Shown here: in pieces, positions 10,295 through 60,247 of the stretch
How the letters are laid out: each line of letters begins with the position of its first letter
Position numbering within the stretch: position 1 is the first letter of the stretch
Origin: a bacterium
GTDB lineage: Bacteria; Patescibacteriota; Patescibacteriia; Patescibacteriales; VMTK01
Length of the DNA: 60,663 bases
Assembly (NCBI GenBank): GCA_030693295.1
Contig: JAUYAT010000008.1
Span: 1-60,663 of the forward strand
Direction: 5' to 3'
Translations under genes and position numbers: made by a program
The notes under the pieces: generated by a model
Told to the model about the DNA's origin: nothing
The model's input: the letters and a program-made list of their open reading frames with translations, nothing else
Database searches by the model: none

Positions 10295-10347
10295 CCAGCC
10301 GCTAAAAATCCAGCCCGCTGTCATTGAAAAAATCAGCGACATTATTA

Positions 10348-10414: not shown

Positions 10415-10452
10415 AAAATTATTTTTTAACATTTTTCCCGTTAAAGTTAAAA

Positions 10453-24501: not shown

Positions 24502-24537
24502 TTAAAAGTTAAAAATTAAAAGTTAAAAGTTATAAAG
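24502..24537. repeat. Heptamer array (TTAAAAG-type x5), intergenic
   Basis: TTAAAAGTTAAAAATTAAAAGTTAAAAGTTATAAAG. Confidence 0.8.
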
Positions 24538-24562
24538 TGTTTTTTATTCTGCTTCACAAACT

Positions 24563-31089: not shown

Positions 31090-31782
31090 TTACCAATTTT
31101 TTTTCTTCAAACCCTTGCTTGCCGCGTCAACTTGCGCCTCCTGTTTGGAAGAGCCCTTGCCCCGGGCAACCAATTCTTCGCCCAAAAATAAGCCGATTTC
31201 AAAAATCTTCGCATGGTCGGGGCCGCTCTCGGATAAAACTTTATAATGAGGCGTGGTGCCGAATATCTCCTGCGCCTTTTCCTGAAACTTTGATTTCGGA
31301 TCAATATAAAGCTGATGGGATAAAATATAATCAAACTTAGACAATATTTCATTCTTAATGAACTTTTTGGCGGAGCGCGTGCCCTGATCCAAATAAATCG
31401 CGCCTATCAGGGCCTCAACCGCATTGGCTAAAATATATTGGCGCGCTTTTGAATTTTTATCCTTTGCCTCCCCCTTTGACAAATAAATATAATCTTCCAA
31501 TCCTAATTCGTTCGCCACCTCGGCCAGCATTTTAGAGTTAACCAAACTCGCTCTCCAGTTTGTCAAATCGCCTTCCTGAGTGTCGGGAAAATGATAAAAT
31601 AAATATTCGGTAACAATTATTTCCAAAACAGCGTCACCCAAGAATTCCAAACGTTCATTATGGCCAAGTTTAAAATTAGGGTGTTCATTTAAATAAGAGC
31701 GATGCACCACGGCTTTAACGAGCAAATCTTGATTTTTAAATTTAACGCCAATCCGCTTTTCAAACTTAGAAAAATCTCTCAT
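31090..31782 (-). CDS. rnc: Ribonuclease III
   Basis: Likely start MRDFSKFEKRIG at 31782; the ORF-track extension to 31842 lies in repeat DNA. NERLEFLGDAVLE signature and a C-terminal dsRBD. Confidence 0.85.
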   Translation of the reverse strand: MRDFSKFEKRIGVKFKNQDLLVKAVVHRSYLNEHPNFKLGHNERLEFLGDAVLEIIVTEYLFYHFPDTQEGDLTNWRASLVNSKMLAEVANELGLEDYIYLSKGEAKDKNSKARQYILANAVEALIGAIYLDQGTRSAKKFIKNEILSKFDYILSHQLYIDPKSKFQEKAQEIFGTTPHYKVLSESGPDHAKIFEIGLFLGEELVARGKGSSKQEAQVDAASKGLKKKNW

Positions 31783-31821
31783 CTGATTAAAACTAAGATT
31801 TTTAGGGTGCTTAAGATTTTT

Positions 31822-31905
31822 AGGATTTTTAGGATAACTCAAAATTATCCTAACTATCCTAAACGTCTTAATTGTCCTAATAATCCTAATTATTTTAATA
31901 ATTAT
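31822..31905. repeat. 9-nt-periodic repeat block (ATCCTAANN), copy 1
   Basis: AGGATTTTTAGGATAACTCAAAATTATCCTAACTATCCTAA...AATCCTAATTATTTTAATAATTA is a near-identical inverted copy of 47003-47102. Confidence 0.85.
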
Positions 31906-31920
31906 TTAATAATCGGCCCA

Positions 31921-32374: not shown

Positions 32375-32408
32375 AAAAGTTAAAAGTTAAAAGTTAAAAG
32401 TTAAAAGT
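32375..32408. repeat. Heptamer array (AAAAGTT x5), intergenic
   Basis: Read directly, immediately upstream of the nusB start. Confidence 0.85.
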
Positions 32409-32652: not shown

Positions 32653-32687
32653 GATTTTAGATTTCAGATTTTAGATTTCAGATTTAA
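32653..32687. repeat. Heptamer array (GATTTYA x5), intergenic
   Basis: GATTTTAGATTTCAGATTTTAGATTTCAGATTTAA, immediately upstream of the rpmF start. Confidence 0.85.
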
Positions 32688-34886: not shown

Positions 34887-35978
34887 TCAAACAATCAGCA
34901 TCGCGTCGCCGTAGCTGTAAAAACGGTATTTGTTTTTAATCGCGATTTTATACGCCTTATCAATATTTTTCTTGCCGGCAAACGCGGAAACGAGCATAAG
35001 CAAAGTGGATTTAGGCAGATGAAAATTTGTAATCATCGCATCAACAATTTTAAATTCATAGCCAGAGTAAATAAATATATCAGTTTTGAATTTGTAATTT
35101 TGAATTTGTAATTTATTTGGAATTTGTAATTTTGAATTTGTGATTTGAAAAGCAGCCGCTTCCAACGTTCTGACGCTTGTCGTTCCCACCGCAATTACCC
35201 GCCTGCCCTCCTGTTTCGCTTTGATGACTTTTTTAATAACAGAGTTTTTAACTTCAACCCACTCGGCATGCATCTTATGCTTCGTGATATCATCGGCTTT
35301 TACCGGCGCGAACGTGCCCAAGCCGACATGCAATGTTATATATTCAATTCGCGCGCCCTTGGCTTTTAGCTTCTTGATTAATTCCGGCGTAAAATGAAAG
35401 CCGGCTGTCGGCGCCGCCACAGAGCCGACTTTTTTATCATCGGCATAGACCGTCTGGTAATTAATTTTATCATTTGCCTGTTTTGGGATTTGTGATTTGT
35501 GATTTGTGATTTGTTTTATATACGGAGGCAGCGGCGTATATCCTATCCTGCCGACTGTATCCATCAAACTTTTGCCGCTCTTGTTAAACCGCGCCTCCCA
35601 TGTCCCGTCATTATTATTTTTAACAATTTCGCATCGCAAGCCGAGGCCGAACTCAACTTCCAAACCTTCCTTTCCGCCATGCCCGCCTAAAAGGCACTGC
35701 CATAGCGCGCCCCTGATCCGTTTTAGCAAAAACACCTCAATCTTTCCGCCGATGCCCGCTTTTTTCCCAATCAGACGGGCAGGAAATACTTTTGAATTAT
35801 TTAAAACTAAAACATCGCCTTTATTTAAATAATCAACAATGTCGTAAAAATGCTTATGTTTTATTTCGCCGGTTTTTTTGTCCAGCGCCAAAAGCCGCGA
35901 ATGGTCTCGCGGCTTTACCGGCCGTTGAGCTATCAGCTCTTTAGGCAAATTGTAGTCAAAGTCTTTCAGATGAAGCAT
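34887..35978 (-). CDS. queA: S-adenosylmethionine:tRNA ribosyltransferase-isomerase
   Basis: Likely start MLHLKDFDYNLPKELIAQRPVKPRDHSRLL at 35978; the ORF-track start at 36020 is a TTG. Contains two heptamer-array inserts. Confidence 0.85.
   Translation of the reverse strand: MLHLKDFDYNLPKELIAQRPVKPRDHSRLLALDKKTGEIKHKHFYDIVDYLNKGDVLVLNNSKVFPARLIGKKAGIGGKIEVFLLKRIRGALWQCLLGGHGGKEGLEVEFGLGLRCEIVKNNNDGTWEARFNKSGKSLMDTVGRIGYTPLPPYIKQITNHKSQIPKQANDKINYQTVYADDKKVGSVAAPTAGFHFTPELIKKLKAKGARIEYITLHVGLGTFAPVKADDITKHKMHAEWVEVKNSVIKKVIKAKQEGRRVIAVGTTSVRTLEAAAFQITNSKLQIPNKLQIQNYKFKTDIFIYSGYEFKIVDAMITNFHLPKSTLLMLVSAFAGKKNIDKAYKIAIKNKYRFYSYGDAMLIV
35084..35150. repeat. Heptamer/14-mer array inside queA
   Basis: TTTTGAATTTGTAA repeated with variants, translated as FQITNSKLQIPNKLQIQNYKFKT. 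Confidence 0.85.
35487..35514. repeat. Heptamer array (GATTTGT x4) inside queA
   Basis: Translated as QITNHKSQIPKQ. Confidence 0.85.
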
Positions 35979-36296: not shown

Positions 36297-36400
36297 TTAA
36301 GGCGTAATTGGCGTAATTGATTACTGATTAAATTTGACTTTTTTCGCAATAAAGTTTATAATTTTTTTAGTCCTTGGACAGGGCTATTATTTTTTTTAAC

Positions 36401-36475
36401 GCGCCGCTATCGTCTAATGGTCAGCCCGCCTCGACTCGCGGAGCTCGTCGACGCGAGGCGGGGACACCAGGTTTT
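36401..36475 (+). pseudogene. tRNA-Glu-like 5' half, interrupted by a GC hairpin and truncated at the anticodon loop
   Basis: GCGCCGCTATCGTCTAATGGTCAG[CCCGCCTCG..CGAGGCGGG]GACACCAGGTTTT parallels GGCCCCATCGTCTAATGGTTAG-GACACCAGCTTTTCAAGCTG of the intact tRNA-Glu 330 nt downstream. No 3' half follows. Confidence 0.5.
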
Positions 36476-36727
36476 ATGGAGTTTATATTATATTGGTTAG
36501 TAAGTAATGATTTTAAATACACATACATAGGGTTTACTGATAATATTAAAAGGAGGATTATTGAACATCAAAGAGGCAAGGTAAAAACCACCAAGAGCTT
36601 TAATGGATTTAGATGTTTTGTAATCGAAAAAGTTATTACTATTCAGGAGACTAGAAAAAGAGAAAAATATTGGAAATCAGCAGCAGGAAGAAAGAAATTA
36701 AAAGAATATTTTAATAAAATTAAATAA
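36476..36727 (+). CDS. GIY-YIG nuclease family protein
   Basis: Likely start MEFILYWLVSNDFKYTYIGFTDNIKRRIIEHQRGK at 36476. The ORF-track extension to 36374 reads through the tRNA fragment. Confidence 0.7.
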   Translation: MEFILYWLVSNDFKYTYIGFTDNIKRRIIEHQRGKVKTTKSFNGFRCFVIEKVITIQETRKREKYWKSAAGRKKLKEYFNKIK

Positions 36728-36731
36728 GTAT

Positions 36732-36803
36732 GGCCCCATCGTCTAATGGTTAGGACACCAGCTTTTCAAGCTGAGAATCGGGGTTCGATTCCCCGTGGGG
36801 CTA
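36732..36803 (+). tRNA. tRNA-Glu, anticodon UUC
   Basis: GGCCCCA TC GTC TAATGGTTAG GAC A CCAGC TTTTCAA GCTGA GAAT CGGGG TTCGATT CCCCG TGGGGCT A. Confidence 0.85.
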
Positions 36804-36812
36804 CAAAAATAA

Positions 36813-39616: not shown

Positions 39617-40255
39617 ATGAATAAAAAAACTATCATAATAATTCTGGCCGCCATCGTCGTAGTCGGCGGCGTGTCTTACGGCGTCAATCGCTGGCGCCAA
39701 CAACAGCTGGCCAATCAAATTTTAAAAGGAATGTATGGCGTTGACGCAGGTTTGCTGGGCAAAATAACCGGCGGCGGAGGAAATATTACCAATCAAATAG
39801 CGCAGGAAATGGCCAAAGAAGCGGCTAAAGATGAAGCTCAACAGAAGAAAGATGAAGCCAAAGAGGCCGCCAAAACACCGGAAGACAGATACGATGAAAT
39901 TGAGGAAGCGGAGACTTACGACGCTGATTCCAAAGCCGCGGTAAGCGAAACCAAAAAAATCGTTGAAAAGGTATTTGGCAAAGCCAAATTAACTTCTATT
40001 TACACCAGCACGTATGGATCCGAAGATGTTCAGTCCAGTATGATGGAATTTGAAATTGCCCGTCTTGTAACCGGAGCGGATTTGGGCGCGCTCAATAAAG
40101 CGCTTACCGACAAGGGTCTGCCGATTATACAAAGCAGCATATCGGATAAAACCGCTATGGTTGTGGCCGGCAGCAATGAAACTGTTGTGTACTCCTTTGG
40201 TTTTGAAATTGACGGGCAGACCGTGGGTGTCAATATCATGAAAACCAGCCAATAA
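39617..40255 (+). CDS. Membrane-anchored hypothetical protein with a Lys/Glu-rich linker
   Basis: 212 aa with N-terminal TM IIIILAAIVVVGGVSYGV. Confidence 0.5.
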   Translation: MNKKTIIIILAAIVVVGGVSYGVNRWRQQQLANQILKGMYGVDAGLLGKITGGGGNITNQIAQEMAKEAAKDEAQQKKDEAKEAAKTPEDRYDEIEEAETYDADSKAAVSETKKIVEKVFGKAKLTSIYTSTYGSEDVQSSMMEFEIARLVTGADLGALNKALTDKGLPIIQSSISDKTAMVVAGSNETVVYSFGFEIDGQTVGVNIMKTSQ

Positions 40256-40285
40256 TTTTAATTCTTAATTCTTAATTTAATTCTT

Positions 40286-40618
40286 ATGGAACAAAATACT
40301 CCAATAATCGGCGGAAGTAAAAATACCGCGATGGCGGTTATAGCGTATATTTTATTTTTTATTCCGCTTTTAACCGGCGACGCCAAAAAAGACGCCTTCG
40401 TGAAATATCATACCAAGCAAGGTTTAGTGCTGTTTTTACTGGTGGTGTTGTTAAATATTGTGGATCGGATTATGCCGTTCTATTTTTGGTGGACAATCAA
40501 TTGGATTTTAAGTTTGGGGACACTGGTATTATTGATTATCGGCATCAGTAACGCCGTGGGCGGCAAGCAACAGCCATTACCTCTTGTTGGCAAGTTTTCG
40601 GACTTTTTTAAATTTTAA
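40286..40618 (+). CDS. DUF4870-like small membrane protein
   Basis: 110 aa: AVIAYILFFIPLLTGDAKKDAFVKYHTKQGLVLFLL. Confidence 0.55.
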   Translation: MEQNTPIIGGSKNTAMAVIAYILFFIPLLTGDAKKDAFVKYHTKQGLVLFLLVVLLNIVDRIMPFYFWWTINWILSLGTLVLLIIGISNAVGGKQQPLPLVGKFSDFFKF

Positions 40619-40680: not shown

Positions 40681-41841
40681 ATGATTATTTTAGGCATAGA
40701 AACAAGCTGTGATGAAACCGCGGCGGCAATAGCGCGCGGGCAAGGAGATAAAATTGAAATTTTATCCAATGTTGTTTCATCGCAAATTGAAATACATAAA
40801 AAATACGGCGGCGTGGTGCCGGAGGTGGCGGCGCGCGAGCACGTATTAAACATCCTGCCTGTTGTTAACGAGGCGTTGGAAAAAGCGGGAATAAAAAGAG
40901 GAAATGCCGGAAAAAAAATTAACGCCATCGCGGTTACCGTCGGGCCGGGGCTTATTACTTCTTTAATTGTCGGTGTTGAAACCGCTAAAGTTTTGTCGTA
41001 TGTTTGGAATGTTCCGGTTATTGGCGTTAATCATATAGAAGGACACATCTACGCCAATTGGCTGAGGCCAATTGGCGCAAATTACAAATTACCCCGGCCG
41101 CGCACCGCGCAGCGGGGCAGGCAAATTACAAATTACAAAAAAATTCCAAATTCCAAATTCCAAATTCCAAAAATTAATTTCCCGGCTGTGGTTTTAACTG
41201 TATCCGGCGGGCATACGATGCTGGTGCTAATGGAGGGCCATGGCAAATATAAAATTATCGGCGAAACCAGGGACGACGCGGCCGGCGAAGCGTTTGACAA
41301 AGCGGCGAAACTGCTTAAACTTGGTTATCCTGGGGGGCCTGAAATTGCTAAATACGCGGAAAATTTTTTAAATCAAAAATCAAAAATATCTTTGCCTCGC
41401 CCGATGATTTATTCCAAGGATTATGATTTTTCTTTTTCCGGACTGAAGACTGCTTTATTATATGAAATAAGAAAAGATAAAGATTATAAATCGCGAATTT
41501 CCGAATACTGTTATGAATTTCAGCAAGCTGTGATTGATGTTTTAATTCATAAGACGGTTAAAGCCGCCGAAGAGTACGGGGTTAAAACCATTATGTTAGC
41601 GGGCGGGGTGGCGGCTAACAAAGAACTGCGAAGCCAACTTAAACAAGCCGTAAAAAAATCTGTTCCATGTTCCCCCGGCCGCGCACCGCGCAGCGGGGCA
41701 GGCATGTTTTATGTTCCACGGTTAGAATACACGACTGACAACGCGGCCATGGTGGCGGCCGCCGGTTATTACAAAGCGCTCAAGAATAATTTTACGCCGT
41801 GGCGAAAATTAAAAGTTGACGCGAATTTGGAACTTAAATAA
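40681..41841 (+). CDS. tsaD: tRNA N6-adenosine threonylcarbamoyltransferase TsaD
   Basis: 386 aa: MIILGIETSCDETAAAI, GVNHIEGHIYAN, SGGHTMLV, DNAAMVAAAG. Two family-H insertions. Confidence 0.9.
   Translation: MIILGIETSCDETAAAIARGQGDKIEILSNVVSSQIEIHKKYGGVVPEVAAREHVLNILPVVNEALEKAGIKRGNAGKKINAIAVTVGPGLITSLIVGVETAKVLSYVWNVPVIGVNHIEGHIYANWLRPIGANYKLPRPRTAQRGRQITNYKKIPNSKFQIPKINFPAVVLTVSGGHTMLVLMEGHGKYKIIGETRDDAAGEAFDKAAKLLKLGYPGGPEIAKYAENFLNQKSKISLPRPMIYSKDYDFSFSGLKTALLYEIRKDKDYKSRISEYCYEFQQAVIDVLIHKTVKAAEEYGVKTIMLAGGVAANKELRSQLKQAVKKSVPCSPGRAPRSGAGMFYVPRLEYTTDNAAMVAAAGYYKALKNNFTPWRKLKVDANLELK
41078..41175. repeat. Family H hairpin with heptamer flanks inside tsaD (copy 1)
   Basis: (CAAATTA)2-CCCCGGCCGCGCACCGCGCAGCGGGGCAGG-(CAAATTA)2-CAAAAAAATTC-(CAAATTC)3, with the core at 41092-41123. 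Translated as ANYKLPRPRTAQRGRQITNYKKIPNSKFQIPK. Confidence 0.9.
41661..41718. repeat. Family H hairpin inside tsaD (copy 2)
   Basis: TGTTCCATGTTC-CCCCGGCCGCGCACCGCGCAGCGGGGCAGGCA-TGTTTTATGTTCCA, with the core at 41673-41704. Translated as VPCSPGRAPRSGAGMFYVP. Confidence 0.9.
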
Positions 41842-41868: not shown

Positions 41869-42237
41869 CTAAAAAATATCACTTAACCGTTCTAACGCTA
41901 TTCTGTTCATATTATTATCATTGTAATTATCTGCATGGGCAACTATGCATAAAAACCCTATTTTTATTCCCTGCGCGCAAAACCACATTCTTGGAAACTG
42001 GTTTGGCCTCAAGCCCGACTTAGGCATAACAAGTTCAATTTTCCATAAGCCCCAAATATCATTTTGCGTGATTCTATGAAGTTTTGCCGGCGCTATTACT
42101 CTTTGCGGGTTAATAGGGTGAAACTGGACTTCGCATAATCTTTTAAAGGACTTTAATCCTTCTTGTATATTACAAAATCGCCGTTTTAAGCCGGCGATTT
42201 CTTTTTCAAATTTAGTATGATGAATAAAATCAAGCAT
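41869..42237 (-). CDS. Putative toxin partner of the Panacea-domain protein
   Basis: 122 aa, 11 nt downstream of 42249..42734. Family not recognised. Confidence 0.45.
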   Translation of the reverse strand: MLDFIHHTKFEKEIAGLKRRFCNIQEGLKSFKRLCEVQFHPINPQRVIAPAKLHRITQNDIWGLWKIELVMPKSGLRPNQFPRMWFCAQGIKIGFLCIVAHADNYNDNNMNRIALERLSDIF

Positions 42238-42248
42238 AATAGACTTGT

Positions 42249-42734
42249 CTAATTAAAATCTGTTCCGCGATAAAAAGATAATTCATAAGGAATTTCTTTT
42301 TTGTCTTCCGCGCCTATGTATGGAGCCTCGGAATGAGTTAAATTTTCAAGTTCTTTTCCGTTCAAACATCCGTATTTTTTTATAACTCTATCTATCATCT
42401 TTTTTTCCTCGGGAGAAAATATGGAAACATCCGGCTTTCCTAATATTTTATATACTTCTGTCGGATTATATCCGTCCCACTCATTAATTTTTCCTATAAC
42501 AAGCTGTTTTTTCTCTGCCATTTCAGCTGTTATCTTTTCTAATGAAACCGGAAAAGGCCCCATTGGCAGTTTTTTATATGTTTCTCCGGTAAAATATTTT
42601 TGGTATTTTTCATAATAATCAAAATCAAGGTAATACAAAAGCTTTGCTAGCTTTTTCTTGCCGCGAATTTCTTTGCCTAATTTCCAGCAAAAATAAAGTA
42701 TCGCTTGCTGGTATTTTTTTCTATGTAAAGCCAT
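42249..42734 (-). CDS. Panacea/DUF4065 (SocA/GepA-like) antitoxin-domain protein
   Basis: 161 aa: KKKLAKLLYYLDFDYYEKYQKYFTGETYKKLPMGPFPVSLEKI. Confidence 0.6.
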   Translation of the reverse strand: MALHRKKYQQAILYFCWKLGKEIRGKKKLAKLLYYLDFDYYEKYQKYFTGETYKKLPMGPFPVSLEKITAEMAEKKQLVIGKINEWDGYNPTEVYKILGKPDVSIFSPEEKKMIDRVIKKYGCLNGKELENLTHSEAPYIGAEDKKEIPYELSFYRGTDFN

Positions 42735-42778
42735 ATTCTTATTGTTAGTATAGCAAAAAGGGGTAAAAATAACAATTA

Positions 42779-42934
42779 TTATTTTATCTCTGCCACATCA
42801 ATCTTTCTTATATCGCTATTCGTAATTCCAAGCCCCAATTCCCGCATTACCCTAAACGCGTCCGCGGGTCGTCCGAGATAATGCGCTTTTTTGTCTTTGA
42901 GGTAGATATTTTTATTTTTTCTTAATTTTAACAA
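42779..42934 (-). pseudogene. Orphan fragment of the ~50-aa N-terminal surface module
   Basis: The minus strand reads (TTG)LKLRKNKNIYLKDKKAHYLGRPADAFRVMRELGLGITNSDIRKIDVAEIK-stop. Matches the modules in 36906..39539 and 43404..44576. No ATG and no signal peptide. Confidence 0.45.
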
Positions 42935-42948
42935 AAGCCCCAAATATA

Positions 42949-43287
42949 TTATTCAAATATCTGTGGCGTATTCAATGACCATCTTCCTAATTTATCATTT
43001 GTCATCACATCAAAAAAAACTACACTACTTTTGCCAATTTTTTCCCATCTTTCACCAAAAGTTTTAAGAAAATTTATTTTATCTTCTCTTGTTGATACCA
43101 TCCACACTTCACGTTGAATATAAAGATAAAGTAATTCATCTTCCACTCCTGTTATCTCATATTTAATAATAAAACCTGTATCTTTCATCTGATCAATTAA
43201 GGCCTTAAGCTCTACGGTCGCTGCCAGTTGCTCGGCATTCTCTTGCGCTGTTTCTGGCTGTTGTTTTTCTTGCACTGTTAAGGACAT
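42949..43287 (-). CDS. Hypothetical protein, 112 aa
   Basis: Intact ORF. No motif recognised. Confidence 0.4.
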   Translation of the reverse strand: MSLTVQEKQQPETAQENAEQLAATVELKALIDQMKDTGFIIKYEITGVEDELLYLYIQREVWMVSTREDKINFLKTFGERWEKIGKSSVVFFDVMTNDKLGRWSLNTPQIFE

Positions 43288-43403
43288 TTTTTAGTTTTTT
43301 CTTCGGGCATAATTTTATACAATCCTAAACCATAAAATTTTATAATTCAAGATATGGTTAATAATTATAATTTCATCGCGTTTTCTCGCGAATAATAATT
43401 TTA

Positions 43404-44576
43404 TTAAGGCAAACTCTCGCAAGCCACGCCATCGCCATCCATATCTAACTTATGGACATCGCTTCCAACTTTTTTAACACAACAATCATGCGCTGCTTGA
43501 GCTTCCGCGCGAGTTGAATAATCAGAACAATTATAAATATTGCCGCTACAATTACATTCTGTAATGGTTGCTGCTTCGTCTTCATTGTTAGCGCTTTTCT
43601 CGGGATTATAATTATCGCATGCTCCATCTGCCCAAAAGCCTCTTTTATTTTCTCTCGCAAATTGCTCCGCCTGCTTAAATTCATTTTGATATTTACAAGG
43701 AACACTATATGCATATTCATAAGCATAGCCCTCGCTAATCATCAACTTATTAAAATTTGTTCCATCTTCTAAAAACACATATCGTAATAATCTATCATAT
43801 TTATCTCTCTCGCCCTGCGCGCTGTCGTTTTCTAATCCAACTCTTTCGCCATTGAGCAGTTCCTTGGCTTTATTAGACGCTTCTTGCCCAAAGCATTCTA
43901 CTGGTTCGCGGGGATCAACAGTTTCAGGCGTGTTAATGCCAATAAGCCGCAAAACTTCATTCACGCCATTAATCTTAACTGCAATAGTATCTCCATCAAT
44001 AACTTTTACAACACTATATAATTGCTGTTTCGGCTGTTCATCATTAAAAATTTCTTTTTCTATCCCTTTAACAATTACACTATCTGATTGCGGCAAAGTT
44101 GAATCGTTTGAAATCTTAATTTCACTTAAATTATCATCGCCAATCCCCAACCCCAGCTCTCTCATCACCCTAAAAGCGTCAGCCGGCCTGCCTAAAAAAT
44201 GCATTTTCAAATCCGCTGGGTTAACATAATACGCCTTTCCGCTATCCTCAACTTTAAGCAAAATTTTTCCCAACAATCTGTTCGGCGCTTTGTTGTTCCA
44301 CAAATCAAAATCTTTGTTGGAAACTCCCAAGCCCAATTCGCGCATTACATTAAAAGCGTCCGCCGGCCTGCCGAGATAATATCTTTTTTCGTTATCCGGA
44401 TTAACATACCAGGCCTCGCCTTTTGATTCTACTTGCAATAAAATTTTTCCTTTTAACCGGCCTGCTAAACCTTGAGCGTTAGAAAAATTAACCGGCGCTA
44501 ACCCCAAAACAAAAACCAAAATTAATAATAATGTAAGTTGTTTTCTCATGGGATTGTTGCTGTTTAAGTATGTCAT
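43404..44576 (-). CDS. Secreted staphylococcal-nuclease-like thermonuclease with two N-terminal ~50-aa modules and a C-terminal excalibur-like Cys-rich domain
   Basis: VIDGDTIAVKINGVNEVLRLIGINTPE...ERDKYDRLLRYVFLEDGTNFNKLMISEGYAYEY is the SNase fold. CSDYSTRAEAQAAHDCC...DMDGDGVACE is excalibur-like. Start at 44576 or 44549; the ORF-track GTG start at 44624 lies inside a structured leader. Confidence 0.75.
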   Translation of the reverse strand: MTYLNSNNPMRKQLTLLLILVFVLGLAPVNFSNAQGLAGRLKGKILLQVESKGEAWYVNPDNEKRYYLGRPADAFNVMRELGLGVSNKDFDLWNNKAPNRLLGKILLKVEDSGKAYYVNPADLKMHFLGRPADAFRVMRELGLGIGDDNLSEIKISNDSTLPQSDSVIVKGIEKEIFNDEQPKQQLYSVVKVIDGDTIAVKINGVNEVLRLIGINTPETVDPREPVECFGQEASNKAKELLNGERVGLENDSAQGERDKYDRLLRYVFLEDGTNFNKLMISEGYAYEYAYSVPCKYQNEFKQAEQFARENKRGFWADGACDNYNPEKSANNEDEAATITECNCSGNIYNCSDYSTRAEAQAAHDCCVKKVGSDVHKLDMDGDGVACESLP

Positions 44577-44585
44577 AATATCTAC

Positions 44586-44690
44586 AAAAAAGGTCTCCCG
44601 TCGGCGGTAACCCTTTCGGATCACCCGATGCCCTTTCGGGCAAAGACCACTTGCATAGCGCCGATCAGAAGACCGTCTCTATGCAAGTGG
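44586..44690 (-). promoter_or_regulatory. Structured 5' leader (attenuator or riboswitch-like) ending in a U6 tract
   Basis: Minus-strand RNA: a 12-bp hairpin CCACUUGCAUAG-N20-CUAUGCAAGUGG, then GGUCU-[GCCC GAAA GGGC]-[UCGG GUGAUCC GAAA GGGUUAC CG CCGA]-CGGG-AGACC-UUUUUU. The first hairpin's loop contains a second GGUCU. Confidence 0.4.
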
Positions 44691-44724
44691 ATTTTCAACC
44701 ATGCCTTAAACAAGGGTTAGGTTT

Positions 44725-44758
44725 ACCCTGTTAGATAATTCATCATATCTAATAGGGT
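44725..44758. mobile_element. Miniature P2-related hairpin (ACCCTGTTAGATA-N8-TATCTAATAGGGT)
   Basis: 13-nt arms with one mismatch. The terminal motif resembles ACCCCGTTAGA. Confidence 0.4.
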
Positions 44759-44773
44759 TGATTAAATTTTATA

Positions 44774-44959
44774 TTATTTGCAATCGCAACACTGGCAACA
44801 GCTTGCCGCTCCTGCTTTGCCAAACTTCCTATCGTATCTTTTAACTAGATCCAACTGATCTTTATTCGCCTCGCCGGCAACCTCGCTCATTATCTTTTCC
44901 TGCTCCTTGACTGGCAACTTAAAAAAACTATCCAAATCTAATTTTTTATCATTCTTCAT
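44774..44959 (-). CDS. Small protein with a Cys-rich C-terminus
   Basis: 61 aa ending AGAASCCQCCDCK. Starts 3 nt after the zeta-like gene. Confidence 0.45.
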   Translation of the reverse strand: MKNDKKLDLDSFFKLPVKEQEKIMSEVAGEANKDQLDLVKRYDRKFGKAGAASCCQCCDCK

Positions 44960-44962
44960 ATT

Positions 44963-45532
44963 TTATTTTTTAATAATTGATTTAATTTTTATAACATTTT
45001 TTCTTGCGTTAATGAACGCTTCAATAAACGCTTTTTTAGGCACCATCCTGCCTTCTAACTTTTCCCGTTTTTTAGTGAACGCCCAAGCAACTAACGGATC
45101 TTGATAAATATAGCAAATCATTACTTCCCTGTTTTTATCAATTGACCTTTCAACATTGCGGTAAACAATATCAAATTTCGCAAAAGTGCCGTCTAACAAT
45201 AAATTGTATTTATTTTTTAAAGCGTGGCTATAAAGTATATCAACAGCTATGGAAGCCGCGCCCTGAACCACATCTGAATTAGCGCCATTATATTGCGGAA
45301 TGATTTGTCTAATATCATCAGCGTCAATTCTTATCATGTCGCTATTAAATTTTTCAATAAATCTTTTAGAATATTCTGTCTTGCCCGCACCCGGAGAGCC
45401 GGCCATAAACAAGGAAATGGGTTTTTCATTCGGCTTATAAATTTTATCGCTCGCGAATTTTTCAAACAGCAAACGCTTATTCTTTTTTATAAATTCTTTG
45501 GCGCGCTCGCTGTCTGTTAATGGATTATTCAT
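44963..45532 (-). CDS. Zeta-toxin-like P-loop kinase
   Basis: Likely start MNNPLTDSERAKEF at 45532. Walker A FMAGSPGAGKTEYS, then LLLDGTF. Confidence 0.6.
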   Translation of the reverse strand: MNNPLTDSERAKEFIKKNKRLLFEKFASDKIYKPNEKPISLFMAGSPGAGKTEYSKRFIEKFNSDMIRIDADDIRQIIPQYNGANSDVVQGAASIAVDILYSHALKNKYNLLLDGTFAKFDIVYRNVERSIDKNREVMICYIYQDPLVAWAFTKKREKLEGRMVPKKAFIEAFINARKNVIKIKSIIKK

Positions 45533-45536
45533 AAGG

Positions 45537-45809
45537 TTATGATAATAAATGATCAGCAACATCGGTTAGGCGCATTTTACCGTCAGGAGCTGCCATTTTC
45601 AACTGTCCGATTTTTTCGGACACTTCGCTTCCTTCCTGTTTCAACTTTGTTTTAAGGTCATTCCAGTATTTCCTAGGCCTCTCGTTGCCGGTTAAAATTC
45701 TAATAACATCAACAACCGAAAAATACCACTCTTCTTTTTTATCATCCCATTCGCGTCGCACAGATTGATTATTAAAAATTACAATTGATTTATCTTGTTT
45801 TTTAACCAT
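45537..45809 (-). CDS. Bro-N-like DNA-binding domain protein
   Basis: 90 aa: FNNQSVRREWDDKKEEWYFSVVDVIRILTG...QLKMAAPDGKMRLTDVA. Confidence 0.5.
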   Translation of the reverse strand: MVKKQDKSIVIFNNQSVRREWDDKKEEWYFSVVDVIRILTGNERPRKYWNDLKTKLKQEGSEVSEKIGQLKMAAPDGKMRLTDVADHLLS

Positions 45810-46011: not shown

Positions 46012-47004
46012 ATGATTAAAGAAAGCAAAAAAATAGTTTTTTCAGGGGTCCAGCCCAGCGGGGATCTGCATTTAGGCAATTACCTCGGCGCGATTTTGCA
46101 ATGGGCGGAAATGCAGGATAAATACAGCTGCATTTTTTGCGTGGTGGATTATCATGCCATTACGGTTAAGCAGGATCCGGCTGTTTTGCGGGACAGAATA
46201 ATTGAAACCGCCAAGATGTATTTGGCCGCGGGCATCAATCCGGAAAAATCAATTATTTTTCAGCAGTCTGATGTAAGCGCGCACGCCGAGCTGGCATGGA
46301 TTTTAAACTGCTCGGCCAGAATAGCCGATTTGAATAAGATGACGCAATTTAAAGAAAAGGCGGGCAAAAATCAGGAAACCGTCAGTATCGGACTTTATGA
46401 TTACCCTGTTTTAATGGCGGCTGACATACTGCTTTACAATACCGACACGGTGCCGGTTGGCGAAGACCAGATTCAGCATGTTGAGCTTTGCCGCGATTTG
46501 GCGCAAAGATTTAACCGGCAATTCGGCGAAACATTCAAAATTCCCGAATTGGTTATCAAAAAAGAAGCGGCGCGCGTCATGGGCTTGGACGATCCGGCCA
46601 AAAAAATGAGCAAGAGCGCGGCCAGTCCGGCCAATTATATCGCCTTGGCCGATAAGCCGGAAGAAGCGGCTAAAAAAATCATCAAAGCGGTTACCGATTC
46701 GGGCAAAGAAATTATATTTAACAAAGAGCTTAAACCGGCGATTTCCAATCTTTTGACCATTTATTCCCTGTTGTCGGATGAATCCATCAAAGATTTGGAA
46801 AGGCGCTACAAGGGCAAAGGCTATGGCGAATTTAAGGAAGATCTGGCGGAAGTGGTGAAAGAATTTTTAACGGATTTTCAGGAGCGGCTTTACAAAATAA
46901 AAAACAGCGATGTAAAAGACTTTCTGCGCGCCGGCGCGGAAAGAGCAAAGCCGATCGCCGATGAAACATTAAGGAGAGTTAAGGAGAGAGTGGGGGTAAA
47001 GTAA
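46012..47004 (+). CDS. trpS: Tryptophan--tRNA ligase
   Basis: 330 aa: SGVQPSGDLHLGNYLGA and KMSKS. Confidence 0.9.
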   Translation: MIKESKKIVFSGVQPSGDLHLGNYLGAILQWAEMQDKYSCIFCVVDYHAITVKQDPAVLRDRIIETAKMYLAAGINPEKSIIFQQSDVSAHAELAWILNCSARIADLNKMTQFKEKAGKNQETVSIGLYDYPVLMAADILLYNTDTVPVGEDQIQHVELCRDLAQRFNRQFGETFKIPELVIKKEAARVMGLDDPAKKMSKSAASPANYIALADKPEEAAKKIIKAVTDSGKEIIFNKELKPAISNLLTIYSLLSDESIKDLERRYKGKGYGEFKEDLAEVVKEFLTDFQERLYKIKNSDVKDFLRAGAERAKPIADETLRRVKERVGVK

Positions 47005-47102
47005 TAATTAAGATAATTAGGATGATTAGGATAATTAAAATAATTAGGATTATTAAGACAATTAGGATAGTTAGGATAATTTTGAGTTATCCTAAAAATC
47101 CT
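47003..47102. repeat. 9-nt-periodic repeat block (ATTAGGATN), copy 2
   Basis: ATAATTAGG ATGATTAGG ATAATTAAA ATAATTAGG ATTATTAAG ACAATTAGG ATAGTTAGG ATAATTTTG AGTTATCCT AAAAATCCT. Inverted copy of 31822-31905. Confidence 0.85.
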
Positions 47103-48347: not shown

Positions 48348-48368
48348 AATTTCTAATTTCTAATTTCT
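48348..48368. repeat. Heptamer array (AATTTCT x3), intergenic
   Basis: Read directly between two convergent genes. Confidence 0.8.
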
Positions 48369-48378
48369 AAAAACGAAT

Positions 48379-49779: not shown

Positions 49780-50919
49780 TTAACTCTTTCTAAAATACAG
49801 CCAGATTCCGCCCAGTCCCCACCATGCGGCAACAAGGCAAAACAGCCAGCCGATATACGGCAGGGAGCAGATTATCCAGACAGCCGCGATACCTATAACC
49901 ATCGCCCAAATCATAGACTCTTTTTGTTTTGGCAAAAATCTGCCAAGCAAACCGCGGCCGACCAAAATACCGACTAAAATCTTGCTGATTAACAAGGCGA
50001 TCAGCCACACTCCCATTAAAATAAAAGCCAGAGGCAAGCCGATTAAAGTTATCAATAACAGTATTGCCGCGATCGGCGTTAAAAACATAATAACAGCTCC
50101 CCAGCCGATTGAAACGCCGGCTTTGTCTAACATTTTATCGGTTAATTTTTTAATTTCATCGCGCCATAAGCTGATTAAAACCAAGCCGATTACCAATGCG
50201 GAAAAAATGGAATACAATCTGCCCCAGGCCCAGCCAAGCGTTTTTTGCTTTTTTGTTATTGAAATTTTAGGCAGATTATGAGTAACCGCGCCGGCAATGC
50301 TCGCGCCTTCCGCGATGGAGGCTTCATTTTTACCGGTGTAAGTTACACTGCCGTTGATTATCGCTTCATTAGCGATTATCAAGCCACTGTCTTTTTTGTT
50401 TTGATTGTCTATTCTAAGATTGACGTTTTTGCCGACTTCGCCCGCTATTGTGGCATTTGCCGCGCCGCCATGCAGATCGCGGCCGATTTTCCCCCTGATT
50501 TCCGCTGTCGCGGCGCCTACAAGCATATCCCAGCCCACTTCGGCGGATTTCCCCAAGTAAACGCCGGCGCCGAATGCCATAACATTGCGCGCGATACGGC
50601 CGTTAATATTGACATTGTTGCTTGCCGCGCGGACGCTGCCATTAACTGCGCCGTTGATGTTGATTGACTGTCCGGCGCAAATAACATCTCCTTCAACGGT
50701 TCCGTTGATGTTGATTGACTGTCCGGCGCAGATGACATCGCCGGTTACCGCGCCGTCAATAGTGATGGTTGAACCGGCGGCGAATAAATTTCCTTCAACG
50801 GTTTCGCCTTGGGCCACATAAACCGAATTGTCGGTTTTAACCGTAAAGGCATGGGCTGTTGCCGGCGCAACTAACAGAAGCGCAAAGCAAGTAATAATCA
50901 GAAGTCTTGTTTTTGTCAT
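49780..50919 (-). CDS. Beta-helix (bactofilin-like repeat) protein with signal peptide and C-terminal multi-TM region
   Basis: Likely start MTKTRLLIITCFALLLVAPATAHA at 50919. Repeats GDVICAGQSININGTVEGDVICAGQSININGAVNG. The ORF-track N-terminal extension to 51186 overlaps the divergent gene. Confidence 0.5.
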   Translation of the reverse strand: MTKTRLLIITCFALLLVAPATAHAFTVKTDNSVYVAQGETVEGNLFAAGSTITIDGAVTGDVICAGQSININGTVEGDVICAGQSININGAVNGSVRAASNNVNINGRIARNVMAFGAGVYLGKSAEVGWDMLVGAATAEIRGKIGRDLHGGAANATIAGEVGKNVNLRIDNQNKKDSGLIIANEAIINGSVTYTGKNEASIAEGASIAGAVTHNLPKISITKKQKTLGWAWGRLYSIFSALVIGLVLISLWRDEIKKLTDKMLDKAGVSIGWGAVIMFLTPIAAILLLITLIGLPLAFILMGVWLIALLISKILVGILVGRGLLGRFLPKQKESMIWAMVIGIAAVWIICSLPYIGWLFCLVAAWWGLGGIWLYFRKS

Positions 50920-50965
50920 AAATTTATGGTTAAGTATTAATAATATACTTATTTTATCATACTTT

Positions 50966-52660
50966 ATGCAAAAAGCAATAAGAGAGCTGTTAAAATTAAA
51001 CATAAAATCCCGCGATGATTTAATGATGGCTAAACGAAAAATCGCCAAGAAATATAATATTGGAATTTTGCGGAATTCGGATATTTTAAAGGAATATAAT
51101 AAATTAATCGCCGTAGGGGCATTGCGCGCAATGCCCCTACTTGAAAAAATCTTGCGCAAGCGCGCGGTCCGGACAATGTCGGGCATCGCGCCGGTTGCGG
51201 TTTTAACCGCGGCTTATCCCTGCCCGGGCAAGTGCGCTTACTGCCCGACCGAAAAAAATGTGCCGCAAAGCTATCTGTCAAACGAGCCGGCTGTTATGCG
51301 CGCCATTCGCTGCGATTATAATCCTTACTTGCAGACACAAATGCGTTTAAGCGCTTTGGAAGCAAATGGCCATAAACCGGAAAAAATTGAATTGATTGTT
51401 ATCGGAGGAACATGGAGCGTTTTGCCGGAGAAGTATAAATATTGGTTTATAGCACAGTGTTTTAAAGCGGCAAATGATTTTCGCTCTGTCATTCTGAGGG
51501 CGCAGCCCGAAGAATCTCAGGTTAATCAATACAAAACACTTAATATGGTAAATACTAAATCTATATTAACTAACCAGAGATCCTTCGCTGCGCTCAGGAT
51601 GACAACATTAATAAAAGAACAGAGAAAAAATGAGAAGGCTAAATATAAAATTATCGGGCTTACTCTTGAAACAAGGCCGGATTATATTAATGAAGAAGAA
51701 TTATTGCAAATGCGGGAGCTGGGGTGCACAAGAGTTGAGCTCGGCGTACAAGCGATTGACGATAAAATATTAAAACTAAACAAGCGCGGCCATGGCGTTG
51801 ATGAAATCGCGCGCGCCACCGAGTTGCTAAAAAATTACGGCTTTAAAGTTACTTATCATATAATGCCGGGACTGCCCGGAGCAACGCCGGCCAAAGATTT
51901 AAAAATGTTTAAACAGCTTTTTAGCGATGAGCGATTCCAGCCGGACCAGATAAAATTTTACCCCACGGTAGTTACGCGCGGCAGTTTGTTATACAAATGG
52001 TGGAAAGCGGGAAAATACAAGCCCTATGGCGATAAGCCGTTGCGCGAATTAATTATTGGCTGCAAAAAAGTGGTGCCGCCGTATGTTCGTATTATAAGAT
52101 TAATACGGGATATTCCAAGAGAATCAATTGTCGCCGGCAATATGATTACCAATCTGCGTCAGGTGATGAAAGACGCGGGAGCGGAATGCAGGTGCATTCG
52201 CTGTCGTGAATGCAGGAACGAGGCATTGCCTCGTTCAGTTCGTCCAATATTACGAATTATTAAATATAAAGCGTCAGGAGGGGAAGAATATTTTATCAGT
52301 TTTGAAAGCAAGGATGGAAAAATTCTTTATGGGTTTTGCAGATTAAGGACACAAAACATGGAACACAAAACATGGAACAAGCTTAATTTTTTTAATAACA
52401 CAGCGTTGATTAGGGAATTGCATGTTTATGGCGAGTTGGTGCCGGTCGGTGAAAATAAAAAAATTCAACACTCCGGATTGGGCAAAAAATTAATGGCCGA
52501 GGCGGAAAAAATCGCGCGCGAGAACGGATATAAAAAAATAGCCGTGATATCAGGCATCGGCGCGAGAGATTATTACAGAAAATTGGGATACAGGTTAAAA
52601 GAAAGCTATATGATTAAAGCGGACGCGACGCAACAGCGGCGCGTACGCGATCGCGATTAG
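50966..52660 (+). CDS. Elp3-like radical-SAM/GNAT tRNA modification enzyme
   Basis: Likely start MQKAIRELLKLN at 50966. Radical-SAM CPGKCAYCP, and C-terminal GNAT RELHVYG...QHSGLGKKLM. Several repeat insertions. Confidence 0.8.
   Translation: MQKAIRELLKLNIKSRDDLMMAKRKIAKKYNIGILRNSDILKEYNKLIAVGALRAMPLLEKILRKRAVRTMSGIAPVAVLTAAYPCPGKCAYCPTEKNVPQSYLSNEPAVMRAIRCDYNPYLQTQMRLSALEANGHKPEKIELIVIGGTWSVLPEKYKYWFIAQCFKAANDFRSVILRAQPEESQVNQYKTLNMVNTKSILTNQRSFAALRMTTLIKEQRKNEKAKYKIIGLTLETRPDYINEEELLQMRELGCTRVELGVQAIDDKILKLNKRGHGVDEIARATELLKNYGFKVTYHIMPGLPGATPAKDLKMFKQLFSDERFQPDQIKFYPTVVTRGSLLYKWWKAGKYKPYGDKPLRELIIGCKKVVPPYVRIIRLIRDIPRESIVAGNMITNLRQVMKDAGAECRCIRCRECRNEALPRSVRPILRIIKYKASGGEEYFISFESKDGKILYGFCRLRTQNMEHKTWNKLNFFNNTALIRELHVYGELVPVGENKKIQHSGLGKKLMAEAEKIARENGYKKIAVISGIGARDYYRKLGYRLKESYMIKADATQQRRVRDRD
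51113..51140. repeat. Perfect 28-nt palindrome inside the Elp3-like gene
   Basis: GTAGGGGCATTGCG/CGCAATGCCCCTAC, translated as VGALRAMPLL. Confidence 0.9.
51488..51603. repeat. Palindromic element (GTCATTCTGAGGGCG...CGCTCAGGATGAC) inside the Elp3-like gene
   Basis: The terminal inverted repeats enclose an AT-rich centre. Translated as SVILRAQPEESQVNQYKTLNMVNTKSILTNQRSFAALRMTT. Confidence 0.8.
52216..52236. repeat. 21-nt hairpin inside the Elp3-like gene
   Basis: GAACGAGGCA-T-TGCCTCGTTC, translated as NEALPRS. Confidence 0.8.
52349..52376. repeat. 14-nt tandem duplication inside the Elp3-like gene
   Basis: ACACAAAACATGGA x2, translated as TQNMEHKTWN. Confidence 0.85.
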
Positions 52661-52690: not shown

Positions 52691-52862
52691 GTCATTCCCA
52701 ACTTGATTGGGAATCCAGGCGAGAGCCATAGGAATATGTTTATTAGTTAAAGGTAAGTGAAAATTGATAATTTTAATCTGCTATATATATTTTTGCCATT
52801 CACCCCTGGATTCCCGCTTTCGCTCGCCTCGCTGAAGCTTCGGCGAAGCGGGCGGGAATGAC
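52691..52862. repeat. P1-family palindromic element with a 85-nt AT-rich centre
   Basis: The left arm GTCATTCCCAACTTGATTGGGAATCCAGG ends at 52719. The right arm CCTGGATTCCCGCTTTCGCTCGCCTCGCTGAAGCTTCGGCGAAGCGGGCGGGAATGAC starts at 52805. Confidence 0.8.
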
Positions 52863-59446: not shown

Positions 59447-60247
59447 ATGGATAAACAAACTCAAAAAAAATTATTGGAGATAGTGAAGCGCAATTACGAA
59501 GAGATTGCCGAGGATTTTAGCGAAACCAGAAAAAAGCATTTATGGCCGGAGCTGTTGCAATTAACTCAGGACATAAAAAACGGCGATAAAATTTTAGATG
59601 TTGGCTGCGGCAGCGGCAGACTGTTAGAAGTTTTTAAAGATAGGGATATCAAATATATCGGTATTGACAGTAGTGAAAAGCTGATTGATATAGCTCAAAA
59701 ATCAAAAATCCCCGGCCACGCAGCGCGCAGCGGGGCAGGCAAAAATCAAAAATCAAAATTTATTATCTGCGATATTTTGGAATTAAGCAAAATTCCGGAG
59801 ATTAGTTTTGATTATGTATTCTCCGTCGCGGTTTTGCATCATCTGCCAGGGGAAGACTTGCGCGTCGCGGCTTTAAAACAGCTCAAAAATAAAATTAAGC
59901 CTGAGGGTAAAATCATTATAACGGTCTGGAATTTATGGAGCCAGAAAAAATTCAGAAAAATTATCATTAGAACAGAGCTGTTAAAATTGTTTAATAAATT
60001 AAAACTAATGTTCCGCCGAAAGCGCTCCGGAAAAAGCCAAATTGCCGAATGCCGAGCGCTTAGTATTTCCGGCGATTTCGGCGATATTATATTTGACTGG
60101 AAAAACAGCAAAGGCGAAAAAACGAGCCGGCGCTATTATCACGCGTTTAGAAAAAGGGAGCTGAAAAAAATAACAAAAAAGGCGGGATTGCGAATTGAAA
60201 AAATATATAATGACAAATTTAATTATTACGCAATTTTAAAAAAATGA
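59447..60247 (+). CDS. Class I SAM-dependent methyltransferase (Trm9-like by weak resemblance)
   Basis: ILDVGCGSGR motif. The ORF-track start at 59438 is a GTG; the first ATG is at 59447. Contains a family-H insertion. Confidence 0.7.
   Translation: MDKQTQKKLLEIVKRNYEEIAEDFSETRKKHLWPELLQLTQDIKNGDKILDVGCGSGRLLEVFKDRDIKYIGIDSSEKLIDIAQKSKIPGHAARSGAGKNQKSKFIICDILELSKIPEISFDYVFSVAVLHHLPGEDLRVAALKQLKNKIKPEGKIIITVWNLWSQKKFRKIIIRTELLKLFNKLKLMFRRKRSGKSQIAECRALSISGDFGDIIFDWKNSKGEKTSRRYYHAFRKRELKKITKKAGLRIEKIYNDKFNYYAILKK
59696..59760. repeat. Family H hairpin with heptamer flanks inside the methyltransferase gene
   Basis: (CAAAAAT)2-CCCCGGCCACGCAGCGCGCAGCGGGGCAGG-(CAAAAAT)2-CAAAATT, with the core at 59710-59741. 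Translated as QKSKIPGHAARSGAGKNQKSKF. Confidence 0.9.

Follow-up and report, generated by a model that had tools for sequence, protein, structure and literature searches.

A 30-nucleotide GC-rich palindrome, probably a mobile repeat, within heptanucleotide microsatellites of essential genes in Patescibacteria

We analyzed a 60,663-nt stretch of DNA from a bacterium of the Patescibacteriota (contig JAUYAT010000008.1 of assembly GCA_030693295.1), hereafter the window, in which a 30-nt GC-rich palindromic sequence, hereafter the core, recurs within tsaD, valS and a class I methyltransferase gene. In our assessment, the core is likely a very short, non-autonomous mobile repeat of Patescibacteria that belongs to the same functional class as the REP, NTS/SRM and Rickettsia palindromic elements (RPEs), inserts cleanly 5' of the dinucleotide CA, and strongly prefers pre-existing A/T-rich heptanucleotide microsatellites. 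A pattern search of the window allowing at most two mismatches recovered five copies of the core motif CCCCGGCCGCGCAMCGCGCAGCGGGGCAGG and none in 100 dinucleotide shuffles, and the five positions agree with those given in an earlier note on the same DNA:

41092-41121, plus strand: tsaD site A, CCCCGGCCGCGCACCGCGCAGCGGGGCAGG, encoding the peptide PRPRTAQRGR(Q)
41673-41702, plus strand: tsaD site D, encoding PGRAPRSGAG
12175-12204, minus strand: valS, encoding PRPRNAQRGRQ
59710-59739, plus strand: class I methyltransferase gene, encoding PGHAARSGAG, with two mismatches
869-898, minus strand: 3' tail of an NTS-like hairpin (GGGAATC^CAGGAG), within the terminal codons of the open reading frame (ORF) 841-1881

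The core has a constant length of 30 nt and is placed between in-phase heptamer units, and in all copies the palindrome CCCCG...CGGGG is followed by CAGG. Computed folding reproduced the imperfect hairpin described previously, with stems of 5 and 4 bp and a 3-nt loop in which the most variable position, 14, is located; single stem changes in the copies have no compensating change. As RNA, the hairpin has a folding energy of -15.6 kcal/mol, the repeats on either side being unstructured, and the strand opposite the core folds somewhat better than shuffles (z -1.8). All six frames of the core, which corresponds to 10 codons, are free of stops, and the translations contain the peptides PRPR(T/N)AQRGRQ or PG(R/H)A(P/A/T)RSGAG in open frames, as had been noted; LPRPRTAQRGRQ is an example of a predicted peptide spanning the inserts. 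Four of the five copies indeed carry locus-specific heptamers on their two sides (CAAATTA 2+2, CAAAGTT 3+2, CAAAAAT 2+3 and CATGTTC ~2+2 units), and the fifth has none. Arrays of such period-7 units cover 0.9% of the window, and by our own binomial estimate the probability that four of five cores would fall within them by chance is ~3e-8. The fifth copy, near 867-898, does lie within the end of ORF 841-1881, as claimed, but outside the gene body: it interrupts a GTCATTCCC...GGGAATC hairpin that forms the last ~45 codons of this ORF, and homologues of the ORF end without the hairpin-derived tail. All five copies are co-oriented with both the local GC skew and the host genes, a pattern confounded by gene orientation at n=5 that we do not use as evidence. 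A scan of the window with Rfam gave no match at the core sites; its matches elsewhere in the window were bacterial 23S and 5S rRNA genes, tRNA and a LOOT RNA. A profile of the core peptides searched against 1.84 billion representative proteins yielded only two matches, both to the low-complexity flank, and a protein-word search with the concatenated core peptides returned zero candidates.

The tsaD DNA of the window was aligned with that of three relatives, namely locus L013, which encodes the closest insertion-bearing TsaD homologue (P0002), locus L012, and locus L002, which belongs to the metagenome-assembled genome (MAG) KR13_N2.mb.53 (GCA_018896595.1). At site A, L013 reads TAAATTC CAAATTA CAAATTA CAAATTA where the window reads CAAATTA CAAATTA [core] CAAATTA CAAATTA, and at site D it reads CATATTC CATGTTC CATGTTC where the window reads CATGTTC [core] CATGTTT TATGTTC. 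Thus, at both sites the unit counts are equal and the length differs by exactly 30 nt, and the left and right arrays around the core share the same unit in continuous phase. The copy at 869-898 likewise differs from two paralogous hairpins (4029-4082 and 52809-52862) by exactly 30 nt, at GGGAATC^CAGG. These equal counts and exact differences led us to discard a 7-bp target duplication at both tsaD sites and at the NTS site. Since the L013 arrays are uninterrupted at both core sites, the alignments indicate that the arrays came first and that the core was inserted as exactly 30 nt between their units (or has been precisely excised from the relative), cleanly, without target duplication, and independently in different lineages.

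The same loops are filled differently among the relatives. In L012, site A contains only (CAAATGT)x4 and sites B and D are empty. A third loop, site B, holds only an AAATCAA array in the window but an identical core in L002. The plain CCAAATT array of the window corresponds in L013 to a neighbouring CCAATAT array that contains another, 42-nt hairpin (CCCGCCTGCC...GGCGGGCAGG). The valS hot spot, at which the core interrupts a CAAAGTT array in the window, contains in the KR13 MAG (L019; 88% DNA identity) an inverted pair of GTCATTC...GAATC hairpins, resembling the NTS-like hairpins of the window, after a single CAAAGTT; in L020, a CAGATTT array there holds yet a different hairpin. Arrays in L013, L015, L016, L017, L018 and L020 are occupied by other hairpin families. 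The proposal that the segments are lineage-specific insertions is thus borne out by the close tsaD orthologues of L012 and L013, which lack the core, and by Thermotoga maritima TsaD, Thermus thermophilus ValRS and T. maritima QueA, which lack the segments altogether. In addition, at tsaD site C of L013 a perfect 33-nt CAAATTA array replaces 33 nt of non-repetitive coding DNA of the window (~41490-41525; 21 of 33 bases identical), which suggests that an old, decayed array was homogenized in situ and not that a new one was inserted.

Heptanucleotide arrays were counted strictly against dinucleotide shuffles and additionally listed with Tandem Repeats Finder. Period 7 is the sole over-represented tandem-repeat class in the window, with 7 strict arrays versus 0.0 in shuffles and a background level of 0-1 for other periods from 5 to 15; the number of period-7 arrays reported by Tandem Repeats Finder is 15 or more. 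More than 10 arrays, both genic and intergenic, carry no core. The tracts with cores and the other arrays are as follows:

41078-41175, plus strand: tsaD site A tract, CAAATTA x2, core, CAAATTA x2, CAAAAAAATT, CCAAATT x3-4
41141-41171, plus strand: neighbouring array at tsaD site A, without core
41660-41672 and 41703-41716, plus strand: tsaD site D, CATGTTC-type units on either side of the core
41370-41387, plus strand: tsaD site B, AAATCAA array without core
12141-12225, minus strand: valS tract, CAAAGTT x3, core, CAAAGTT x2, then CAAAATT-type units
59695-59758, plus strand: methyltransferase tract, CAAAAAT x2, core, CAAAAAT x2.7 (33 nt of array and the 30-nt core)
12748-12780, minus strand: valS, 33-nt AAAAGTT array without core
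35084-35146, minus strand: queA, 63-nt CAAATTC/AAAATTA array without core, an insertion relative to the QueA structure 1vky
35482-35514, minus strand: queA, 33-nt CAAATCA array without core
32375-32408, plus strand: intergenic array, AAAAGTT x4.9
24502-24538, 32653-32685, 40253-40286 and 48348-48370: further intergenic arrays

In genic arrays, the A-rich strand is the sense strand, with the exception of the CATGTTC array. The statement that the heptamers are stop-free only in the sense orientation applies to CAAATTA, CAAAGTT and CAAAAAT and fails for CATGTTC, whose complement GAACATG contains no stop. Selection for an open frame is visible in the AAAAGTT array of valS, where a single unit has changed to AAAAGTG at precisely the point at which an unbroken run of AAAAGTT would create a TAA in frame. 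Some intergenic arrays directly abut start codons (32653-32685 before rpmF, and 40253-40286). The heptamer flanks had been viewed as part of the architecture of the element; this view does not hold, given that arrays are abundant without the core, occupy the same hot spots in dozens of TsaD and ValS homologues of Patescibacteria, and run uninterrupted at both tsaD sites of L013. The arrays are a feature of this genome and clade in their own right, and replication slippage most likely accounts for their origin and turnover. Array lengths, both genic and intergenic, cluster at 33-35 nt, or ~5 units (12748-12780, 32375-32408, 32653-32685, 35482-35514, 40253-40286 and 59695-59758), where simple slippage predicts a broader spread. 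Arrays of 9-nt units of the AATTATCCT and ATAATTAGG types occur at 31797-31913 and 47004-47081, and one of them encodes the N terminus of RNase III (ORF 31090-31842; LSYPKNPKNLKHPKNL).

Searches of public data with the core motif identified six loci in GTDB species representatives (five of them from the KR13 MAG and the sixth from a contig assigned to a Gammaproteobacteria bin) and five loci in JGI metagenome contigs; viral contigs gave 0 matches and thus no sign of a phage vector. By fuzzy matching, the window and the retrieved loci together contain 19 independent core copies, most of which differ from the consensus at 0-2 positions, and one of which, within the GAATTTC array at TsaD site A of L014, shows decay at six positions. 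Directly 3' of the core, 18 of the 19 copies have a C and 16 have the dinucleotide CA, and the 5' flank is A/T-rich and not fixed. The copies occupy non-orthologous sites in host genomes whose shared genes are only ~81-88% identical at the DNA level. Approximately 11 of the 19 copies lie in the sense orientation within ORFs, including LepA (L008, in the third frame) as well as a MiaB-like ORF and a thymidylate kinase-dUTPase ORF (both in L001). Two are antisense: one in a helicase ORF of L005, where the core is read as PAPLRGARPG and AACAAGG units are on the sense strand, and one in the L007/L010 homologues of window ORF 841-1881. No long ORF runs through the second L001 copy or the copies of L004, L009, L011 and L020, and at least four core copies are intergenic or in unclear contexts. 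Hence, the strict sense orientation emphasized by the earlier note describes the five window copies and does not extend to related genomes; at the same time, the copies are neither mostly intergenic nor equally divided between the two orientations. Within ORFs, the core is used in all three sense frames and on the antisense strand, and its six frames are stop-free, which argues for a DNA element rather than a selected peptide. A larger composite repeat unit is suggested by L006, L009 and L011, in which a second hairpin ending in ...GAATG(C/G)GG(C/G)A precedes the core and CATG(C/T)GAAT follows it.

The inserts are located in surface loops of the host proteins, as had been proposed. The AlphaFold model of the window TsaD, built with 61 homologues, has a mean predicted local distance difference test score (pLDDT) of 88 and a predicted template modeling score (pTM) of 0.86, and no part of it except the two inserts, residues 132-162 and 336-339, scores below 50 in pLDDT; each insert is placed between regular secondary-structure elements. 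In comparison with solved structures, the insert segments correspond to gaps in T. maritima TsaD, T. thermophilus ValRS (1gax) and, for the arrays, T. maritima QueA (1vky). The 120 TsaD homologues nearest to the window protein share 57-77% identity with it, come almost all from the Patescibacteria group, range from 337 to 449 aa and carry insertions at a few hot spots. These insertions are of two kinds: peptides of heptamer arrays (QIPNSK, QITNYK, KIQNPKS and similar) and peptides of GC hairpins (PPLLKGG, AKGGSASGGK, PACHRLCLGQMAGRQ and similar). At site A, approximately 45 of the 120 homologues have an insertion of at least five residues that is absent in T. maritima; many of these are heptamer-array peptides, and by our count roughly 9 of the 45 contain a recognizable GC-hairpin peptide. 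ValRS homologues, which range from 867 to more than 1100 aa, show the same hot-spot pattern. Judging from the strict maintenance of the frame and the avoidance of stops, the inserts are probably retained in mRNA, read through and translated as disordered loops. Other peptides derived from GC hairpins are found in frame in ValRS (FAKATAGKP, valS ~11790-11830), in the PHP-domain protein encoded by ORF 21762-23099 (ASFAEVASATKAESAGKPAG), and in the radical-SAM/GNAT ELP3-like protein of ORF 50828-52660, where VILRAQPEES...RSFAALRMTT comes from an inverted pair of GTCATTCTGAG-type hairpins.

We propose the following scenario for these insertions. Heptanucleotide microsatellites pre-exist at the site and serve as landing pads; their A/T-rich DNA would melt easily and slip, and thus would be an accessible target. 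Genic arrays would persist only in permissive surface loops, in the stop-free orientation and with lengths that keep the frame. The core enters as an exact 30-nt unit, without target-site duplication, immediately 5' of CA, and probably survives in essential genes because it adds just 10 codons, has no stop in six frames, and lands in loops that the arrays mark as already tolerant of extra residues. By likeness to the REP/RAYT and IS200/IS605 systems, we infer that it moves as single-stranded hairpin DNA cut by a hairpin-specific nuclease.

Candidates for such a nuclease are encoded in the window by three single-domain GIY-YIG ORFs of 83-99 aa (Ssn-like), and the window also contains eight NTS-like hairpins (GTCATTCCC...GGGAATCCAGG with varied inner stems) at 752-776, 899-952, 1877-1901, 2275-2319, 4029-4082, 4106-4148, 52691-52715 and 52809-52862. 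The relevant features are as follows:

899-952, minus strand: NTS/SRM-like hairpin that received the core, GTCATTCCCGCC...GCGGGAATC
4029-4082, plus strand, and 52809-52862, minus strand: uninterrupted paralogous hairpins
1918-2217, minus strand: GIY-YIG ORF, flanked by inverted GTCATTCCC...GGGAATCCAGG hairpins and not by the core
9998-10276, minus strand: GIY-YIG ORF
36476-36727, plus strand: GIY-YIG ORF

The NTS-ssnA-NTS arrangement is that of the Ssn family of site-specific single-stranded DNA nucleases with a single GIY-YIG domain (cd10448), the NTS consensus is CGTCATTCCCGCGMAVGCGGGAATCYRG, and mobility of NTS has so far not been demonstrated (PMC11893778). The three Ssn-type genes are the only mobilizing candidates within the window, and their connection with the core, drawn from sequence comparison, is putative; we regard an Ssn link of the core as possible but doubtful. 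A GIY-YIG ORF had no informative match in a search of solved structures and no match above the curated cutoff in NCBIfam, and a regular-expression hunt for GIY-YIG genes near cores found only one window ORF and none in the retrieved loci. The published degenerate SRM pattern has 0 matches in the window, the core included; it also misses the obvious NTS-like hairpins and thus is a weak discriminator here. The NTS-like hairpins match the Neisseria NTS/dRS3 repeat in their outer sequence and form MITE-like inverted pairs with ~80-nt spacers (750-953 and 52691-52862). ORF 36476-36727 lies between a tRNA-Glu-like 5' fragment (36400-36470) and an intact tRNA-Glu gene (36732-36804), and the fragment is split between its D arm and anticodon stem by a 38-nt palindrome (CCCGCCTCG...CGAGGCGGG). 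The hairpin upstream of this ORF, considered as an SRM variant with GTCA/CCAGG ends, was rejected, since these ends are D-arm and anticodon-stem residues of the tRNA-Glu-like fragment. Further features of the window include toxin-antitoxin and defence-like genes (NYN domain, AbiEii, SocA/Panacea antitoxin and zeta toxin) at 9359-11109 and 41869-45809, and the LOOT RNA (Rfam RF03000, 72.6 bits) at 44606-44723 on the minus strand, at the 5' end of ORF 43404-44624.

Several observations weigh against the interpretation of the core as a mobile palindromic repeat. The exact core is rare in public data (six GTDB, five JGI and 0 viral loci), which keeps the census small. Its fold energy is not better than that of composition-matched shuffles (z -0.4 for DNA and -0.75 for RNA), and the translation of the inserts is deduced from the frame. 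From the comparison of two genomes, the core may either have been gained in the window or been excised precisely from L013. Transposase and RAYT genes are absent among the window ORFs scanned or read by eye, none of the GIY-YIG genes of the window is flanked by the core, and the core is devoid of the GTCATTCCC/GGGAAT needed by Neisseria SsnA. The most substantial alternative is that the element itself makes the arrays, either through 7-bp target duplication followed by precise excision that leaves the duplicate behind or through hairpin-stalled replication and slippage, so that arrays without a core would be its footprints. The strong co-localization of cores and other hairpins with arrays is expected under this scenario, as are the core with ~18 nt of heptamer-like units in L007/L010 where the window orthologue has a single CCAAATTC, the imperfect direct repeat of ~12 nt flanking one L020 variant, and the preferred array length of 33-35 nt, which simple slippage does not predict. 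However, the equal unit counts at filled and empty tsaD sites with their exact 30-nt difference, together with the insertion into the NTS-like hairpin without duplication, contradict an array-making element, and both flanking arrays consist of the same unit in continuous phase. Moreover, arrays far outnumber those that bear hairpins (~9 of the 45 TsaD site A inserts), and heptanucleotide repeats rank first in abundance among long simple-repeat classes in many bacteria that have no such elements (Mrazek 2007, as cited in PMC4679880). We therefore consider this scenario improbable, while the L007/L010 locus, the L020 flanks and the 33-35-nt mode stay compatible with it.

Selection on the sequence itself offers two other explanations. 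The hairpin and its unstructured A-rich flanks might be a functional RNA or DNA signal, such as a signal for ribosome pausing or co-translational folding, a protein-binding site or a segment excised from mRNA; the near-invariance of the core across diverged genomes, its RNA hairpin of -15.6 kcal/mol amid unstructured repeats, and the intergenic arrays that abut start codons, like the TAACTGA repeats for which translational control has been suggested, speak in favor of such a role. It is nevertheless very unlikely, given that the sites are non-orthologous between genomes and close relatives have no core, that the core occurs in both orientations and between genes, that the fold is not better than in shuffles and its stem changes are uncompensated, and that Rfam has no match at the sites; furthermore, a length that is a multiple of three and stop-free frames would be needless in a segment excised from mRNA. 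Alternatively, the Arg/Pro-rich peptide PRPRTAQRGRQ might be the selected feature, for example as an RNA-binding patch, since it is basic and three of the four host enzymes either act on tRNA (TsaD and ValRS) or are methyltransferases. This is still harder to reconcile with the data, and we give it very little credence: the reading of the same DNA in three frames and antisense, with unrelated peptides, already contradicts it, the core also occurs between genes, the peptide profile matched only low-complexity sequence, and the segments are predicted to be disordered. Finally, the shortness of the core, the identity between its copies and its high GC content in an AT-rich MAG could recall an adapter, a chimeric join or another artefact of sequencing or assembly, but the 30-mer has been assembled independently in NCBI, JGI and ENA data, the host frames are always kept open, and the L014 copy has decayed to six mismatches, so that an artefact has next to no probability. 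A mobile palindromic repeat that enters pre-existing heptanucleotide arrays thus remains our preferred explanation.

Small palindromic repeats, in-frame palindromic insertions (RPEs) and heptanucleotide microsatellites are each already known. In the literature searched, the coverage of which was incomplete, we found no description of (i) a 30-nt element that cleanly and preferentially enters heptamer microsatellites, (ii) several hairpin families with a GGCAGG-type 3' end, or (iii) the joint occupation of loop hot spots in essential proteins, or in-frame hairpin and heptamer insertions in genomes, of the Candidate Phyla Radiation (CPR). A broader and rather unlikely proposition is that Patescibacteria harbor an undescribed class of 30-42-nt palindromic mobile elements with a ...GGCAGG 3' end and ^CA insertion without duplication, which would use microsatellites as landing pads, be mobilized as single-stranded DNA by Ssn-type GIY-YIG nucleases, and remodel the loops of essential proteins together with the microsatellites. 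If true, this would constitute a general mechanism of CPR protein-length evolution and the first evidence of Ssn/SRM-type systems as true transposable elements. The window provides a concrete, testable case of loop gain by essential conserved enzymes in ultra-small CPR bacteria, in which a large share of the length variation of TsaD (337-449 aa) falls in few hot spots filled by heptamer and hairpin peptides. It also separates microsatellite turnover and hairpin insertion, which form one signal in the raw sequence, and makes the second dependent on the first. The filled/empty pairs and the target rule (^CA, no duplication, exactly 30 nt) limit the mechanisms that come into question and direct attention to single-strand nucleases specific for hairpins. 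In practical terms, such inserts inflate the 'low-complexity' and 'hypothetical' annotation and disturb CPR marker-gene alignments and phylogenies.

Among known systems, the RPEs, whose description is credited to Ogata et al. 2000, reportedly consist of palindromic repeats that have entered conserved protein genes of a bacterium with a reduced genome, in frame and in a lineage-specific manner, at fold-neutral surface positions. They are ~100-150 bp long and comprise the sequence families RPE-1 to RPE-8, and they are not known to be associated with microsatellites. The core shares the in-frame repeated palindrome in conserved genes and its absence in orthologues; it is exactly 30 nt and thus falls outside the RPE length, comes from a different phylum, and would not be expected to resemble them in sequence. 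The comparison with RPEs drawn earlier is fair as an analogy, in the in-frame palindromic insertions and their loop location. The yeast mitochondrial GC clusters are likewise short mobile GC-rich palindromes of an AT-rich genome, able to lie in frame in a protein gene (var1), but these are organellar and eukaryotic and have other sequence families and flanking signatures. The heptamer arrays have a parallel in the cyanobacterial STRR repeats. A further one is offered by the heptanucleotide repeats, which outnumber every other class of long simple repeats in many bacteria and are ascribed to polymerase slippage (Mrazek 2007, as summarized in PMC4679880), and by the TAACTGA repeats of Beggiatoaceae and Cyanobacteria, for which a role in translational control has been proposed (PMC4679880). 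So far as that summary describes them, these repeats resemble the window arrays as over-represented tandem 7-nt units of few copies each, often upstream of start codons and with a stop-limited orientation in genes; the window arrays differ from this description in that the unit varies per locus (CAAATTA, CAAAGTT, CAAAAAT and others), many are in frame in essential genes, and they receive GC hairpins.

The Coxiella repeats QMITE1 and QMITE2 are also non-autonomous, enter or extend ORFs in frame and add residues to annotated proteins, but they are 150-400 bp long and have terminal inverted repeats and 2-11-nt direct repeats (PMC5896051). REP sequences and REPINs are thought to move as single-stranded hairpins mobilized by RAYTs, which are IS200/IS605-like Y1 transposases, and they are multicopy, GC-rich imperfect palindromes of 20-40 nt that lack a target duplication (PMC3733652, PMC3337134), features that the core shares. 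It differs in that it has no GTAG/CGTC tag, starts with CCCC after a variable 5' flank, and occurs mostly as single copies in ORFs, whereas REPs are extragenic and usually act as inverted doublets (PMC3733652, PMC3337134). The RAYT gene that accompanies REPs was not seen among the window ORFs scanned or read by eye. With the IS200/IS605 elements it shares the lack of target duplication beside a short specific target (^CA 3' of the core in 16 of 19 copies); however, the target of these elements lies 5' of the element, and the core is a single hairpin with no distinct left-end and right-end hairpins. From NTS, the core differs by the absence of GTCATTCCC/GGGAAT, by matching neither the CGTCATTCCCGCGMAVGCGGGAATCYRG consensus nor the SRM pattern, and by its location, in the window and the retrieved loci, away from GIY-YIG genes. 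Both are oriented hairpins of ~30 nt with a C directly 3' of the palindrome, all core copies being followed by CAGG where NTS has CCAGG; in addition, GTCATTC-type hairpins of a relative lie at the valS hot spot that holds the core in the window, and the core is inserted into one NTS-like hairpin of the window.

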